From the IMG/VR virus record IMGVR_UViG_2534682327_000006: 4,471 nucleotides of DNA. One strand, 5' to 3'. The stretch is from a virus (lineage: Duplodnaviria; Heunggongvirae; Uroviricota; Caudoviricetes). Positions 1 to 4,471 of the stretch are shown piece by piece. Position 1 is the stretch's first letter. Each line of letters begins with the position of its first letter. Below the pieces are notes generated by a model that made no database searches, was not told where the DNA came from, and worked only from the letters and a program-made list of their open reading frames with translations. The position numbers and the translations under genes were made by a program.

Positions 1-2015
1 CGGGCTGTGCTGACCAGCCGCTCACTGCCGTCATCCGCTGCCACGGTCAGGCGAAGCATGAAACTCACGCCCTTCACCACCTTCGGCGTATCCCAGCGGG
101 CCAGTACCTGATACTCCCCGCTGTCTGCGGTGACTTCGGCGGTCAGATGCTGCACTGCTGGCGGCGTGACACCATTCACCGTGCCGCTCTGGTCGCCGTC
201 AAAGTGCGCCCCGTTATCCACGATGGCCTCTTTTTCCGGTACATGCTGCACGGCGGTGATGGCATACGTGCCGTCATCGTTCTCACGGATACTCACGCAG
301 CGGAACAGGCGCTGGCGCAGCGTCGGCAGCTTCAGCCCCCACACGCTGTATCCGGCAACGCCGTCAGGAACACGGCTCACTTTTACCTTCACGCCGTCGG
401 TGACGGACTGGACCTCCACGCTGACCGGATTGCCACTTCCGTCAACCAGGCTTATCAGCGTGGTACCGGAGGATGGCAGCGTGATTTCACGGTCGAGCGT
501 CAGCGTCCGGGTCTGGCTGTTCACCGCCAGCACGCGCCCGCCGGTGCTGATACCCGCATAGTCATCATCGCAGATTTCAATGACATCCCCCGGTACATGG
601 CGAAGCCCTTCCGCACCCACGCTGAAGTCCACGGTCTGCGTTTCCAGCAGTTCCGTTTTAATCAGCCACAGCCCGGCGCGGTGCGCCTGCCCCCGGCTGG
701 TACAGCCAAAGGCATCCATCTTCGTGACGTTACGACCGTAACGGGCAATGGCCTGCGTATCTTCAACAAGCTCTGTCGCCGTCTCCCAGCCGTTGTTCGG
801 GTCAATCCAGTTCACCTCAACGGCATTATGGCGGTCCTTCAGGGCGCTGAAGCTGTAGCGGAACGGCGCGCCATCATCCGGCATCACCACATTACTGCGG
901 TTATAGGTCCACACCTTATCTGATGGTCGGTCCTGCACGAACGTCAGCGTCTGCCCGTTCCATACCGGCATACAGCGCATCGCCGAGCAGAAATCACTGA
1001 GCACATCCCACGCCTTACGCTGCGTGGTCAGGTAGGCATTACAGGTGATGCGCGGCTCCGTGCCGCCAAAACCGTCCGGCACCGACTGGTCGCAGTACTG
1101 GCCGATGACATACAGCGCCCATTTATCCACATCTGCCGCACCAAGACGTTTCCCCATGCCGTAGCGCGGATGGGTCAGCATATCCCACAGACACCAGGCC
1201 ATGTTGTTGCTGTATGCTGGCTTAAACGTTCCGTCCCAGATACCGCTGTATTGCCGCGTCTGCGGGTTATAGTTCGACGGCACCTGCAGAATGCGCCCGC
1301 GCAGATGATAATTACGGCTCACCTGCTGGCTGCCGAACTGCTCCGAGTCCACCTGCACGCCGACCAGTGCCGTGTTCGGGTAGCACTGTTTCACATCGAT
1401 AATTTCGGTGTATGACGACCAGAGCGTTTTGTTCTGCAGCTGGTCTGTGGTGCTGTCCGGCGTCATCCTGCGCATCCGGATATTAAACGGGCGCGGCGGC
1501 AGGTTATCCACCACCACCGAGGCCAGATACTGTGAAGTGGTTTTGCCCTTAATGGTGATGTCTTTTTCTGTCACCCAGCCACCGTTACGTTGTATCTGAA
1601 CCAGCAGGCGGACTTCCGACGGATTCCTGTCCCCCTTTGAGGTGGTTTCCACCAGTGCCTGCACACCGAAGGTAAAGCGCAGACGGTCGATATTTGCAGA
1701 CGTGATGGTCCGGGTGATCGGCGTGTCATATTTCACTTCCGTACCCAGCACCGTCTCGGAGCCGGAGGATTCAAATCCCTCCGGCGGAGTCTGCTCCTGC
1801 TCACCTGCCCGGAACACCACCGTGACACCGGAGATGTTGGTATTCCCCTCAGTGTCCAGCACCGGCGTACTGTTCAGCAGCACGCTTTTTAATCCATCCA
1901 CCGGACCTTCAATCGGCCCTTCACTGATGGCATCAATCACACTCAGCAACTGCGTGGATTTCAGGTTGTCCTTCGCTTCGCGCGGGGTATGCCCCTTACT
2001 GCTGCCTTTACCCAT
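1..2015 (-). CDS. J: Tail-tip host-specificity protein J (central tail fibre), N-terminal 671 codons; gene continues beyond the window start
   Basis: Minus-strand ATG at 2015..2013 with GGAG 8 nt upstream; translation begins MGKGSSKGHTPR. Hand translations in the same frame at 1499..1441 (PPRPFNIRMRRMTPDSTTDQ), 1019..961 (RKAWDVLSDFCSAMRCMPVW) and 59..3 (MLRLTVAADDGSERLVSTA) all match lambda gpJ as I recall it. Absent from the ORF track presumably because no stop codon falls inside the window. I did not check every codon for stops. Confidence 0.9.
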   Translation of the reverse strand, partial: MGKGSSKGHTPREAKDNLKSTQLLSVIDAISEGPIEGPVDGLKSVLLNSTPVLDTEGNTNISGVTVVFRAGEQEQTPPEGFESSGSETVLGTEVKYDTPITRTITSANIDRLRFTFGVQALVETTSKGDRNPSEVRLLVQIQRNGGWVTEKDITIKGKTTSQYLASVVVDNLPPRPFNIRMRRMTPDSTTDQLQNKTLWSSYTEIIDVKQCYPNTALVGVQVDSEQFGSQQVSRNYHLRGRILQVPSNYNPQTRQYSGIWDGTFKPAYSNNMAWCLWDMLTHPRYGMGKRLGAADVDKWALYVIGQYCDQSVPDGFGGTEPRITCNAYLTTQRKAWDVLSDFCSAMRCMPVWNGQTLTFVQDRPSDKVWTYNRSNVVMPDDGAPFRYSFSALKDRHNAVEVNWIDPNNGWETATELVEDTQAIARYGRNVTKMDAFGCTSRGQAHRAGLWLIKTELLETQTVDFSVGAEGLRHVPGDVIEICDDDYAGISTGGRVLAVNSQTRTLTLDREITLPSSGTTLISLVDGSGNPVSVEVQSVTDGVKVKVSRVPDGVAGYSVWGLKLPTLRQRLFRCVSIRENDDGTYAITAVQHVPEKEAIVDNGAHFDGDQSGTVNGVTPPAVQHLTAEVTADSGEYQVLARWDTPKVVKGVSFMLRLTVAADDGSERLVSTA

Positions 2016-2075: not shown

Positions 2076-2723
2076 TCAGCGACCAATCACCACAACCTGA
2101 CCACCGTCCCCTTCGTCTGCCGTGCTGATCTCCTGAGAAACCACCCGCGACCCCACACGCATTTCCCCGTACAGAACAGGCAAAACATTGCCCTGAGCAA
2201 CCATGTTATCCAGTGAGGAAAAATAGGTGTTCTGTTTGCCGTTATCTGTACTGGCTGCCGTGGACGTCCTGGCTTTCGGTGCCAGCATCTGCGCCACACC
2301 GCCCAGGATCATACTGGCCCCTGCCGCATACATGCCCGATACAGCCGCGGCACCCAGCCAGCCCACAGGGTTCCACCATGCCACCGCAATCAACGCCGCC
2401 CCCAGCACCACCTGAAATACACCGCCACTTTTAGCTCCCGCCAGACGCGGCACGATATGGATCACGGCACCATTTGCCAGCGGCTCATTAAGACGGGCAG
2501 ATAATTCGGTTTCACCTGCATCACGCCCGGCAATGCGCACCTGATACCAGCCGTCATTCAGTTTCTGACGAAACGCCGGGAGCTGTGTGGCCAGCGCCCG
2601 GATGGCTTCGGCCCCCGTTTTCACACGAAGGTCGATGCGGCGGCCAAATCGTTGCAAATCCCCGTAAAGGCAGATGCGTGCCATGCCCGGTGACGCCAGA
2701 GGGAGTGTGTGCGTCGCTGCCAT
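2076..2723 (-). CDS. I: Tail-tip assembly protein I (215 aa)
   Basis: ORF track 2076..2723 minus. ATG at 2723..2721, stop TGA at 2078..2076. N-terminus MAATHTLPLASPGMARICLYGDLQRFGRRIDLRVKTGAEAIRALATQL and C-terminus NGKQNTYFSSLDNMVAQGNVLPVLYGEMRVGSRVVSQEISTADEGDGGQVVVIGR match lambda gpI from memory. Sits 60 nt upstream of J, as in lambda. Confidence 0.9.
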   Translation of the reverse strand: MAATHTLPLASPGMARICLYGDLQRFGRRIDLRVKTGAEAIRALATQLPAFRQKLNDGWYQVRIAGRDAGETELSARLNEPLANGAVIHIVPRLAGAKSGGVFQVVLGAALIAVAWWNPVGWLGAAAVSGMYAAGASMILGGVAQMLAPKARTSTAASTDNGKQNTYFSSLDNMVAQGNVLPVLYGEMRVGSRVVSQEISTADEGDGGQVVVIGR

Positions 2724-3364
2724 TTGTCGGTATACCTCTCTCGTTTGCTCAGTTGTTCAGGAATATGGTGCAGCAGCTCGCCGTCACCACAGTAAATGGC
2801 GGCATGATTCGGCACCGATGAACCAAAACAGCACAGCAGCACATCGCCCGGCTGCGCCGCTGACAACGGCACCTGATACAGCCCTGTGGCCTCCAGATTA
2901 TCCAGATAGAGATTCTGACCGTGACGCCACCAGTCATCCCCGCGATGAAAATCCGGCATCTCAATCCCCGCCAGATGATAAGCATCCCGGAACAGCGTGT
3001 AACAGTCCGTCACCCCGTGCTCAAAGCGCCGCCCGGTAAGATGCGGCACACTGCGGAATTTATGAATCTCACCCCGGCAGACCAGCCACCAAGGCAAATC
3101 GCTCTGCACCTGCAGCCGCCTGTCAGCCTCACTCAGCCAGGGCAGACCACCGGGGTGGCTGTGGACCAGCGCCACAATCTCACCCTGTATCTCTGCCCGC
3201 AGCCAGTCCTCCGGCGACATCCGGAAATACGCCTCCGGCTCACCGGAGATATTCACGCAGGGAAAATATCTTTCCCCCTCCGGCGTTCTCACCACGAAGC
3301 CGCACGATTCCGCTGGCGCACATCGCCGGGCGTGCGCCAGAATCGCTGATTCTGTCTGTGTCAT
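2621..3364 (-). CDS. K: Tail-tip assembly protein K (247 aa form) with N-terminal JAB/MPN (JAMM) motifs and C-terminal NlpC/P60-like motifs
   Basis: Same frame as track ORF 2621..3439, but I place the start at the ATG 3364..3362, 4 nt after the L stop; the track start at 3439 is a GTG inside L. Motifs read directly: ExCG (AESCG, Glu codon 3310..3308), HSHPGGLPWLSEAD (HxHx7SxxD, first His codon 3163..3161), NlpC/P60-like Cys in TDCYTLF (codon 3004..3002) and downstream PGDVLL...NHAAIYCG...HH. Stop TGA at 2623..2621. The last 103 nt overlap the start of I in another frame. Start site is uncertain: the internal Met at 3220 is the alternative. Confidence 0.85.
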   Translation of the reverse strand: MTQTESAILAHARRCAPAESCGFVVRTPEGERYFPCVNISGEPEAYFRMSPEDWLRAEIQGEIVALVHSHPGGLPWLSEADRRLQVQSDLPWWLVCRGEIHKFRSVPHLTGRRFEHGVTDCYTLFRDAYHLAGIEMPDFHRGDDWWRHGQNLYLDNLEATGLYQVPLSAAQPGDVLLCCFGSSVPNHAAIYCGDGELLHHIPEQLSKRERYTDKWQRRTHSLWRHRAWHASAFTGICNDLAAASTFV

Positions 3365-3368
3365 GGGA

Positions 3369-4067
3369 TTACTGCGAAAGTTTGTTAATGGAAAGGAAGC
3401 CGCCAAAGTTGCCGACGTTATTGCGAAACTTACAGCCACTCAGGCATTTGCTGCATTTATCCTTCGTGATATCGGACGTCGGCTGGTCATATTCATCAGC
3501 GACAGCCGGACCGTGATAACCGCACTCATCACCGCGATAGGTCCAGGTGCAGGTGTTGGCCAGCATGATGCGCCCCGGAAAAACAGCACCATCCGTTTCC
3601 GTCGGTGTGGAGAGCACAAAGGAGGCACTGACCGCACTCAGTTCGCTACACTGCTCGATGCGCCAGCGGCTGATCACCTCCTGCTCCGGATCGGCGTCGC
3701 TGTTTCCGTTGACGAAGTTCACCGCATCCAGAAAACGGGCGTAAACCTTACGCCTGACCACCGTTCCGCCGACCAGACTCTGCAGGTCTTCCGCCATCCC
3801 GGTGACCATGCCGTGCAGGTTAGAGACCGTCAGTGTCGGACGGGCAGCACTGCCCTTACCGTTCAGTTCAAATCCCGTCCCCTGAATGGGGTATGCCTGA
3901 TACTGCCGCCCCTGCCAGGTGACCGGCTCACCTTTTTCGTTCTGCTCATTACAGAAAAAATAACGTTCACCACCGACCTCTGTCAGATCGATTTCCCAGA
4001 GCACCACCTGGGCTGACTGAGTAAGGCGTGTCGTCTCATGATGTGTTTCCTGTGGAATATCCTGCAT
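3369..4067 (-). CDS. L: Tail-tip protein L (232 aa), cysteine-rich C-terminal region
   Basis: ORF track 3369..4067 minus. ATG at 4067..4065 with GAGG 7 nt upstream; stop TAA at 3371..3369. Sequence (LWEIDLTEVGGERYFFCNEQNEKGEPVTWQGRQYQ ... CSKCLSGCKFRNNVGNFGGFLSINKLSQ) matches lambda gpL from memory, and the 699-nt length equals the lambda L gene as I recall it. Confidence 0.92.
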   Translation of the reverse strand: MQDIPQETHHETTRLTQSAQVVLWEIDLTEVGGERYFFCNEQNEKGEPVTWQGRQYQAYPIQGTGFELNGKGSAARPTLTVSNLHGMVTGMAEDLQSLVGGTVVRRKVYARFLDAVNFVNGNSDADPEQEVISRWRIEQCSELSAVSASFVLSTPTETDGAVFPGRIMLANTCTWTYRGDECGYHGPAVADEYDQPTSDITKDKCSKCLSGCKFRNNVGNFGGFLSINKLSQ

Positions 4068-4076
4068 CAGGGCCTC

Positions 4077-4313
4077 CTATGCCACGACCTGTTCAAAATC
4101 TGCCGTTATGGTTACCCACAGCGCCCCCACGCTTGCCGACCATTTACGACACCCCCCCCTGATCGGCTTCCAGTCATAAGGTGGCGTCCACTGAAATGCG
4201 CGGACGCCACCGTGCCGTTCCAGAAAGGCTTTCAAAGATGGGTGTTCACATTTACGAACACGTATCGTCACGCTGTAAGTCGACAACTGGTTATTCAGTC
4301 CGTAAGCGTCGTC
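4077..4313 (-). pseudogene. M: Tail-tip protein M, 5'-truncated remnant (roughly the C-terminal 78 of about 109 codons)
   Basis: Minus-frame translation ...DDAYGLNNQLSTYSVTIRVRKCEHPSLKAFLERHGGVRAFQWTPPYDWKPIRGGCRKWSASVGALWVTITADFEQVVA aligns with the C-terminal part of lambda gpM (AGLNANLKTYSVTLSV...FLEEHGG...WTPPYEW...AEFEQVVN, from memory). Stop TAG at 4079..4077. An in-frame TGA sits at 4316..4314, and there is no ATG or GTG between it and the TTG at 4286 that the ORF track uses as a start. No convincing gpM N-terminus in any frame further right. Confidence 0.6.
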
Positions 4314-4334
4314 TCAGCACCGTCTGGCAGATCC

Positions 4335-4471
4335 TGAAATTCCTGAGAGAATAGTGGACACCAAATATGGTGGACGCTATCCATGAAATCATTAACCGCA
4401 GTGCGTAAAAAAAGCCCTAATTATCCCGTTGAGTTCAAAATCAAAATGGTTGAACTCTCGCATCGACCAGA
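4335..4471 (+). mobile_element. Probable left end of an IS3-family insertion sequence (terminal inverted repeat plus start of OrfA); partial, runs off the window
   Basis: From about 4335 the sequence starts 5'-TGAAATTCCTGAGAGAATAGTGGACACC, with a TG terminus and a TAGTGGACAC block that I recall from the IS3 left inverted repeat. About 41% GC over 4335..4471 by hand count, against visibly GC-richer phage DNA to the left. A + strand ORF starts 48 nt inside. Boundary is approximate (about +/- 12 nt); only one end is visible. Confidence 0.45.
4383..4471 (+). CDS. Putative IS3-family transposase OrfA, N-terminal fragment (29 codons in window)
   Basis: ATG at 4383; translation MKSLTAVRKKSPNYPVEFKIKMVELSHRP, open to the window end. 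The YPxEFKxKxVEL pattern resembles the start of the helix-turn-helix region of IS3-family OrfA proteins (IS150-like YP(F)EK / xEFK signatures, from memory). Too short to assign to a named element. Confidence 0.4.
   Translation, partial: MKSLTAVRKKSPNYPVEFKIKMVELSHRP

Follow-up and report, generated by a model that had tools for sequence, protein, structure and literature searches.

Gene order and candidate starts of K

The window, by which we mean the whole stretch of 4,471 nucleotides that was analyzed (IMG/VR virus record IMGVR_UViG_2534682327_000006, Caudoviricetes), carries lambda-type tail-tip genes which are all located on the minus strand (Table 1). The gene order L-K-I-J is syntenic with that of phage lambda. 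Gene K is flanked by L (PF05100) upstream and by I (PF06805) downstream, which is the position of lambda gpK, and its identity to lambda-type K proteins is 95-100%. The protein matches PHROG 30 at 2.7e-163. The window matched 267 phage records, the closest of which is 99.5% identical over 1 kb. The 3' end of K overlaps the start of gene I in a different frame. In this overlap the synonymous rate in the K frame (dS) is close to 0; the variable sites are distributed 2/8/3 over the three K-frame positions and mostly coincide with third codon positions of I. In the host prophage of the window, the M gene is truncated and adjoins IS66-associated sequence. Because of the truncation of M, this copy of K may not be expressed in a productive cycle.

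Table 1. Coordinates of genes, domains and sequence elements at the K locus of the window.
Feature	Position	Strand	Basis
Gene K, full-length (247 codons + TGA stop)	2621..3364	-	ORF and translation
Gene L (232 aa), upstream of K	3369..4067	-	Pfam PF05100 (Phage_tail_L), 1.8e-99
Gene I (215 aa), N-terminal ubiquitin-like domain	2076..2723	-	Pfam PF06805 (Lambda_tail_I), residues 14-97
Overlap of K 3' end and gene I start, different frames	2621..2723	-	ORFs
Start of J	below ~2015	-	Gene maps of close relatives
L stop TAA (3371..3369) and spacer TCCC (3368..3365), no Shine-Dalgarno	3365..3371	-	Sequence; anti-SD +0.7 kcal/mol
ATG start of the long form	3362..3364	-	ATG in 85/85 close relatives; equivalent ATG adjoins L stop in diverged prophages
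JAB/MPN+ (JAMM) metalloprotease domain, residues 3-100	3065..3358	-	Pfam PF14464, 2kks_A, AF2/Foldseek
E19-S20-C21-G22, catalytic-Glu element of the JAMM motif	3299..3310	-	Translation; conserved in relatives
GGAGG in codons P43-E44-A45	3232..3236	-	Anti-SD -9.5 kcal/mol; present in 82/85 close relatives
G absent from the lambda reference after J02459 position 14266	3230..3230	-	Alignment and ORF comparison
Internal ATG, Met49 (classical 199-aa start)	3218..3220	-	ATG in 83/85 close relatives
H68-S-H70-x7-S78-x2-D81, predicted zinc-binding JAMM motif	3122..3163	-	Translation; conserved in relatives
NlpC/P60 (C40) cysteine-peptidase domain, residues 111-224	2693..3034	-	Pfam PF00877

As read from the sequence, the K frame extends on the minus strand from the ATG at 3364..3362 to the TGA at 2623..2621 and comprises 247 codons. 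Its ATG is located 4 nt past the L stop. No Shine-Dalgarno (SD) sequence was found upstream of ATG 3364, either by inspection of the sequence or by prediction of the anti-SD duplex, for which the energy is +0.7 kcal/mol. The internal ATG (3220..3218) is preceded at a distance of 11 nt by GGAGG, with a predicted duplex energy of -9.5 kcal/mol. Over all minus-strand positions of the window the median of this energy is -3.5 kcal/mol and the 5th percentile -8.6 kcal/mol, which places the SD of the internal start among the top 5% of the strand. All positions given in the initial annotation were correct by direct reading.

A third candidate is the GTG at 3439, which is located within L and up to which the mechanical ORF remains open, giving a protein of 272 aa. 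Initiation at this GTG has a vanishingly small probability. It is not preceded by an SD (+0.6 kcal/mol), the additional residues are covered by no profile match, and distant homologues begin at a median of ~9 residues ahead of the conserved I8. In addition, the spacer between L and K is 4 nt long in 32 and 5 nt in 53 of the related loci described below, so that the frame of K relative to L varies. This indel disrupts the frame above ATG 3364 in most relatives; that frame is thus not conserved, and GTG 3439 was therefore rejected as a start.

Domain content of the 247-codon frame

The Pfam profile PF14464 (Prok-JAB; gathering cut-off 25 bits) matches the long form of K with 51.9 bits over profile positions 3-108 of 114. 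The 199-aa form, in contrast, scores 22.7 bits against this profile, which is below the cut-off, and matches profile positions 65-108 only. The 48-residue extension by itself matches profile positions 3-41. Because the domain spans residues 3-100, about half of it is encoded upstream of codon 49. The JAMM motif [E-x(n)-H-x-H-x7-S-x2-D] is complete in K (E19, H68, H70, S78, and D81), and a start at 3220 would remove its E19-S-C-G element. A complete JAB domain is encoded only from ATG 3364. The calculated masses of the long and short forms are 28.2 kDa and 22.9 kDa, respectively.

Structural comparisons gave a consistent picture. The PDB chain 2kks_A, a solved JAMM-type protein, aligns to residues 7-100 of K with its PNEACG over PAESCG, and the NCBIfam desampylase model gives a weak match over residues 3-115. 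An AF2 model of K, built from 19 sequences, has a mean pLDDT of 77.5, which is a moderate overall confidence. The block-mean pLDDT of residues 1-40 in this model is 80-93, with a helix at residues 3-15 and strands at residues 19-27 and 30-35. Foldseek searches with the N-terminal half of the model retrieved JAMM1 of P. furiosus, both by itself and bound to the ubiquitin-like SAMP2 (5ld9/5lda; rmsd 2.9 Å over ~105 columns), and also Rpn11, CSN5, AMSH and 2kks. According to the model, the N-terminal half of K is predicted to have the MPN fold.

The second domain was detected by PF00877 (gathering cut-off 23 bits) with 47.7 bits over the full profile (positions 1-105 of 105). Its predicted catalytic triad consists of C121 (3004..3002), H187 (2806..2804) and H199 (2770..2768). 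The C-terminal half of the AF2 model matched MepS/Spr, LytE and Acd autolysins in Foldseek searches, indicating a papain-like fold. This NlpC/P60 domain is also complete in the 199-aa form. Neither a signal peptide nor a cell-wall-binding module was apparent in K. The initial annotation had proposed that the long form is a two-peptidase-domain protein, that a start at 3220 would drop an ExCG element located within the first 48 residues, and that an NlpC/P60-like half with a Cys...His...His arrangement completes the protein. These proposals agree with the domain searches, none of which placed the whole JAB fold downstream of codon 49.

Conservation of the two starts and of the segment between them

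Close relatives of K were compared in a set of 85 sequences (84 related loci and the window) representing 80 distinct alleles. The long-form start is an ATG in all 85 sequences. The K frame is intact in 84 of them, and the single exception has its stop at codon 60, which is downstream of Met49. In codons 2-48 the variable sites are distributed 10/4/27 over codon positions 1/2/3 (chi-square p = 3e-5), a pattern like that of the following two segments of K (12/4/30 and 19/6/46). Pairwise dN/dS, given as averages over pairs of related sequences which are not independent events, amounts to ~0.21 in codons 2-48 and falls to 0.12 in codons 49-105 and to 0.07 in codons 106-213. These patterns of substitution indicate that codons 2-48 are under constraint at the protein level and that their variation is of the coding type. 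The initial annotation had suggested examining conservation of the 3364 ATG and the balance of synonymous and nonsynonymous change across 3221..3364 as checks of the long form, and both comparisons came out in its favor.

In 19 relatives with 68-95% identity, I8, L9, A12, P17, E19, S20, C21 and G22 are invariant, and position 49 is occupied by M, I or L. More distant homologues were collected by a HMMER scan of 1.84 billion representatives, which returned 1715 proteins at E <= 1e-10. Full-length matches at 35-60% identity are ~230-260 aa long and align from query residue ~4-10 onward. Among 105 representatives in this identity range, the residues of the JAMM motif are conserved in nearly all sequences (E19 in 101, C21 in 95, G22 in 101, H68 in 102, H70 in 101, S78 in 96 and D81 in 102), as are those of the NlpC/P60 triad (C121 in 100, H187 in 101 and H199 in 101). 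At position 49, 67 of these 105 proteins carry Ile, 14 Met, 13 Leu and 6 Val.

The position of the K start relative to L was also analyzed in diverged prophages of Citrobacter, Budvicia, Providencia, Xenorhabdus, Limnobaculum, Aeromonadaceae and Pasteurellaceae. The K ATG is located 3-11 nt past the stop of an L-like ORF, or overlaps it, in 10 of 14 informative loci. The remaining four comprise one Edwardsiella locus with a gap of 35 nt and three loci in which a long upstream ORF was not detected. Three frameshifted copies of K (L144, L146, and L147) were set aside as poor assemblies or pseudogenes; they are uninformative on the start of K because they carry many frameshifts throughout the gene.

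The presence of an SD-preceded internal start raises the question of whether K is expressed as two nested products, both with a role as in other nested-start pairs of lambda: the full-length protein, coupled to L, and a 199-aa K' from ATG 3220. K' would consist of a broken JAB remnant and an intact NlpC/P60 domain. In coliphage-type K the internal SD and ATG would then be used beside the L-coupled start, and the efficiency of coupling would set the ratio of the two products. We consider this improbable. It is true that the GGAGG is strong, that GGAGG and ATG are retained in 82 and 83 of the 85 close coliphage relatives, respectively, and that the short form retains the whole NlpC/P60 domain. 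However, the GGAGG is part of conserved Pro-Glu codons, which suffice to account for its conservation, and its spacing of 11 nt is above the optimum. Codon 49 is ATA in one and CTG in another of the close relatives. Salmonella, Citrobacter and about 86% of the distant relatives have Ile, Leu or Val at this position and lack the GGAGG, which is missing where the peptide reads EPTM or DPEN. Finally, the short form would carry ~50 residues of an incomplete fold.

The lambda reference, proposed function and related enzymes

Lambda K is annotated as a 199-aa protein in J02459 and NC_001416 (14276..14875 in both) and in UniProt (TIPK_LAMBD), in agreement with the initial annotation. The choice of a start codon, which it had assumed as the reason, does not by itself account for this annotation, as the frame is broken in the reference. 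The sequence GAGCCGGAGGCGTATTTCCG.ATG of the window and other phages appears as GAGCCGGAGGC-TATTTCCGTATG in J02459 and NC_001416. The missing G puts the first 45 codons (MTQTESAILAHARRCAPAESCGF...EPEA) into a separate ORF of 76 aa and leaves the SD-preceded ATG at 14276 as the only start from which the remainder of the gene could be read, and this ATG was taken as such. We regard the 199-aa lambda K of the classical annotation as an artefact caused by the G missing from the 1982 reference.

The G, together with an open frame of 247 aa, is present in five independent lambda-derived records (LC730321, PV340536, KT232076, DE3, and lambda imm21). One of these, LC730321 (48,503 bp), otherwise shows no difference from the reference over 37,410-45,550. 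A scan of species genomes showed the G and an intact 247-aa ORF in ~20 further independent, low-coverage stray lambda contigs from unrelated bacterial assemblies, including those of Shewanella, Pseudomonas, Bradyrhizobium, Chromatium, Paenibacillus and Leeuwenhoekiella. Most of these contigs differ from the reference across the region by the additional G alone; one or two more mismatches occur in a few. Apart from the reference, the deletion was found only in OR974322 and OR474059, both of which match the reference without a difference along the 301-nt query and one of which is marked UNVERIFIED. The initial annotation had regarded frameshifts between 3221 and 3364 in homologues as evidence against the long form. 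Such a frameshift does exist, but it is confined to the reference and these two records. NEB lists an inserted G at 14266 with respect to J02459. A genome announcement from specialists on lambda mentions nine differences from the original lambda sequence in hybrid phages which are common to many laboratory strains. A literature search for a published note on the start of K or on a missing base found nothing explicit. The most economical reading of these sequences is that the base is missing from the 1982 sequence, or is missing privately in the stock that was used for it, in which case lambda K would be 247 aa long.

These observations also bear on the view that only the 199-aa form is made from ATG 3220 and that the 144 nt upstream are untranslated or a decaying remnant. 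This model is used by the reference lambda record, RefSeq and UniProt, and the internal start has an SD while the upstream start has none. It is nevertheless most improbable, considerably more so than nested products. A short product as the sole product is contradicted by the upstream segment, because codons 2-48 evolve as coding sequence in the K frame and include half of a conserved domain with its conserved catalytic Glu. Furthermore, Met49 is not conserved, a non-coding gap of 148 nt would be at odds with the dense arrangement of the neighboring tail genes, and the frameshift behind the annotation is missing from independent lambda sequences.

We consider it very likely that 2621..3364 is a complete lambda-type K which encodes, from ATG 3364, a 247-residue JAB plus NlpC/P60 enzyme, with reinitiation at K and cleavage of protein I as likely parts of its biology and the 199-aa form as an artefact. 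The K product would be a non-structural enzyme of tail-tip assembly, with a predicted zinc metalloprotease of the JAB/MPN+ type at its N-terminus (residues ~1-100, with E19, H68, H70, S78, and D81) and a predicted NlpC/P60 cysteine peptidase at its C-terminus (C121, H187, and H199). Translation of K would start at ATG 3364, and the most likely mode is termination-reinitiation coupling, in which ribosomes that have just terminated on L reinitiate at K. We infer this coupling because an SD is lacking and because the ATG lies 4-5 nt past the L stop in close relatives. It agrees with how closely the tail genes of lambda are packed, with overlaps of 4 nt between H and M and of 1 nt between M and L. 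During tail-tip assembly, the JAB domain would most likely remove the ubiquitin-like N-terminal domain of protein I, as proposed in the literature. A listing of JAMM proteins from 2004 included lambda K, and TAPK proteins were described as JAB plus NlpC/P60 proteins predicted to process the ubiquitin-like protein I (Iyer, Burroughs & Aravind, 2006). Cleavage of protein I by the JAB domain of K was reported from experiments in a conference summary of 2025. Lambda gpK is known from the literature to be needed for tail assembly and to be absent from virions.

The two-peptidase architecture proposed in the initial annotation is biologically not new: the combination of JAB and NlpC/P60 was published in 2003-2006, the likely action on protein I has already been described, and NCBI already lists the exact protein of the window, on 111 contigs, as a C40 family peptidase of 247 aa. 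Lambda K in its corrected 247-aa form is found in NCBI on at least 1000 contigs, under names including PAD1/JAB1-superfamily protease, and a K of 744 nt is annotated in the records of phage 434, mEp460 and PV340536. Databases nonetheless differ in their treatment of K. The short K is annotated despite an intact ORF in PhiR47_1, in lambda imm21 and imm434 (CPT records) and in DE3, and thousands of automatic 199-aa gene calls for K occur in clusters. The practical value of the analysis is in curation, as the K of J02459, NC_001416 and TIPK_LAMBD lacks half of the JAB domain and the catalytic Glu. The 199-aa model spreads by homology transfer and has misled analyses; a structural survey of the 199-aa protein in 2020 reported a single peptidase domain. 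Cloning or modelling of gpK from the reference coordinates would yield a truncated enzyme. As a useful by-product, the analysis makes clear why lambda K was annotated with 199 aa.

Among known enzymes, the C-terminal half of K resembles the NlpC/P60 (C40) proteins MepS/Spr of E. coli and LytE of B. subtilis in its Cys-His-His triad and papain-like fold. Unlike these proteins, K has no visible signal peptide or cell-wall-binding module, and it is not found in virions. The N-terminal half resembles JAMM/MPN+ isopeptidases (prokaryotic JAMM1 with SAMP2, the haloarchaeal desampylase, and Rpn11/CSN5) in its E...HxHx7SxxD motif and its fold match; these enzymes act on ubiquitin-like proteins, and the gene for a ubiquitin-like protein adjoins K. 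It differs from them in that its JAB domain, the activity of which is predicted, is fused to NlpC/P60 and serves virus tail assembly, and in that its putative target is a peptide bond within protein I rather than an isopeptide conjugate. The closest system is lambda gpK (TAPK) itself. The window protein differs from the database versions of lambda K, which do not include residues 1-48, and unlike lambda its gene is located in a prophage with a truncated M next to IS66-associated sequence. It is 96% identical to the 247-aa K of resequenced lambda and shares with it the gene order M-L-K-I-J, the JAB plus NlpC/P60 architecture and the overlap with gene I.

A missing base in the lambda reference K gene

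The lambda reference sequence (J02459, here L001) lacks one G at 14266/14267 (L001 1267/1268), at the counterpart of window position 3230. This G is present in five independent lambda-derived phage records (LC730321, PV340536, KT232076, DE3, and lambda imm21) and in about 20 stray lambda contigs. Because of the missing base, the reference K gene is split in two, leaving an ORF of 76 aa and another of 199 aa, the annotated one. The PHROG family phrog_7305, a profile of 76 positions, matches K residues 1-76. As the profile is equal in length to the orphan 76-aa ORF of the frameshifted reference record, the family may have been built from this artefact.

Low-coverage lambda contigs of this kind were found in genome assemblies named as unrelated bacteria (L100, L102, L103, L105, L107-L113, and others), labeled for example as Shewanella canadensis, Pseudomonas spp., Bradyrhizobium, Chromatium, or Neobacillus. 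Some of these contigs are 48.4-48.5 kb in size, and they evidently represent contamination by laboratory lambda DNA.

Features discussed and their coordinates
Feature	Window	L001	Basis
phrog_7305 and 76-aa ORF	3221..3364	1134..1364	PHROG profile match to K
K/I overlap	2621..2723
Truncated gene M	4077..4471		M-frame stops and end of phage homology

K copies with stops or frameshifts and the state of the prophage

The otherwise closely related K of IMGVR_UViG_2537561603_000004 (L022) is likely a pseudogene, since its reading frame is interrupted by a stop at codon 60. Multiple frameshifts along K in the complete genomes L144, L146, and L147 (E. coli ECMA0423, Shigella flexneri SFBU1023) suggest error-prone assemblies or decayed prophages.

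In the window itself, stops interrupt the M frame upstream of approximately 4290 and homology to phage tail genes stops at 4301. The remaining sequence (4302-4471) is 100% identical to a stretch of E. coli NZ_CP189657 that adjoins an element of the IS66 family and a truncated copy of a tape-measure gene. The prophage is probably defective.

The K/I overlap and the start of I

Within the overlap, the variable sites are distributed 2/8/3 over the K-frame codon positions, corresponding mostly to third codon positions of I, and K-frame dS is approximately 0. Together with the Pfam Lambda_tail_I match, which begins at I residue 14, this pattern supports the classical upstream start of I at 2723. 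PV340536 and KT232076 annotate I from a GTG overlapping the K stop, giving a gene of 573 nt; this start would remove 21 residues of the ubiquitin-like domain.
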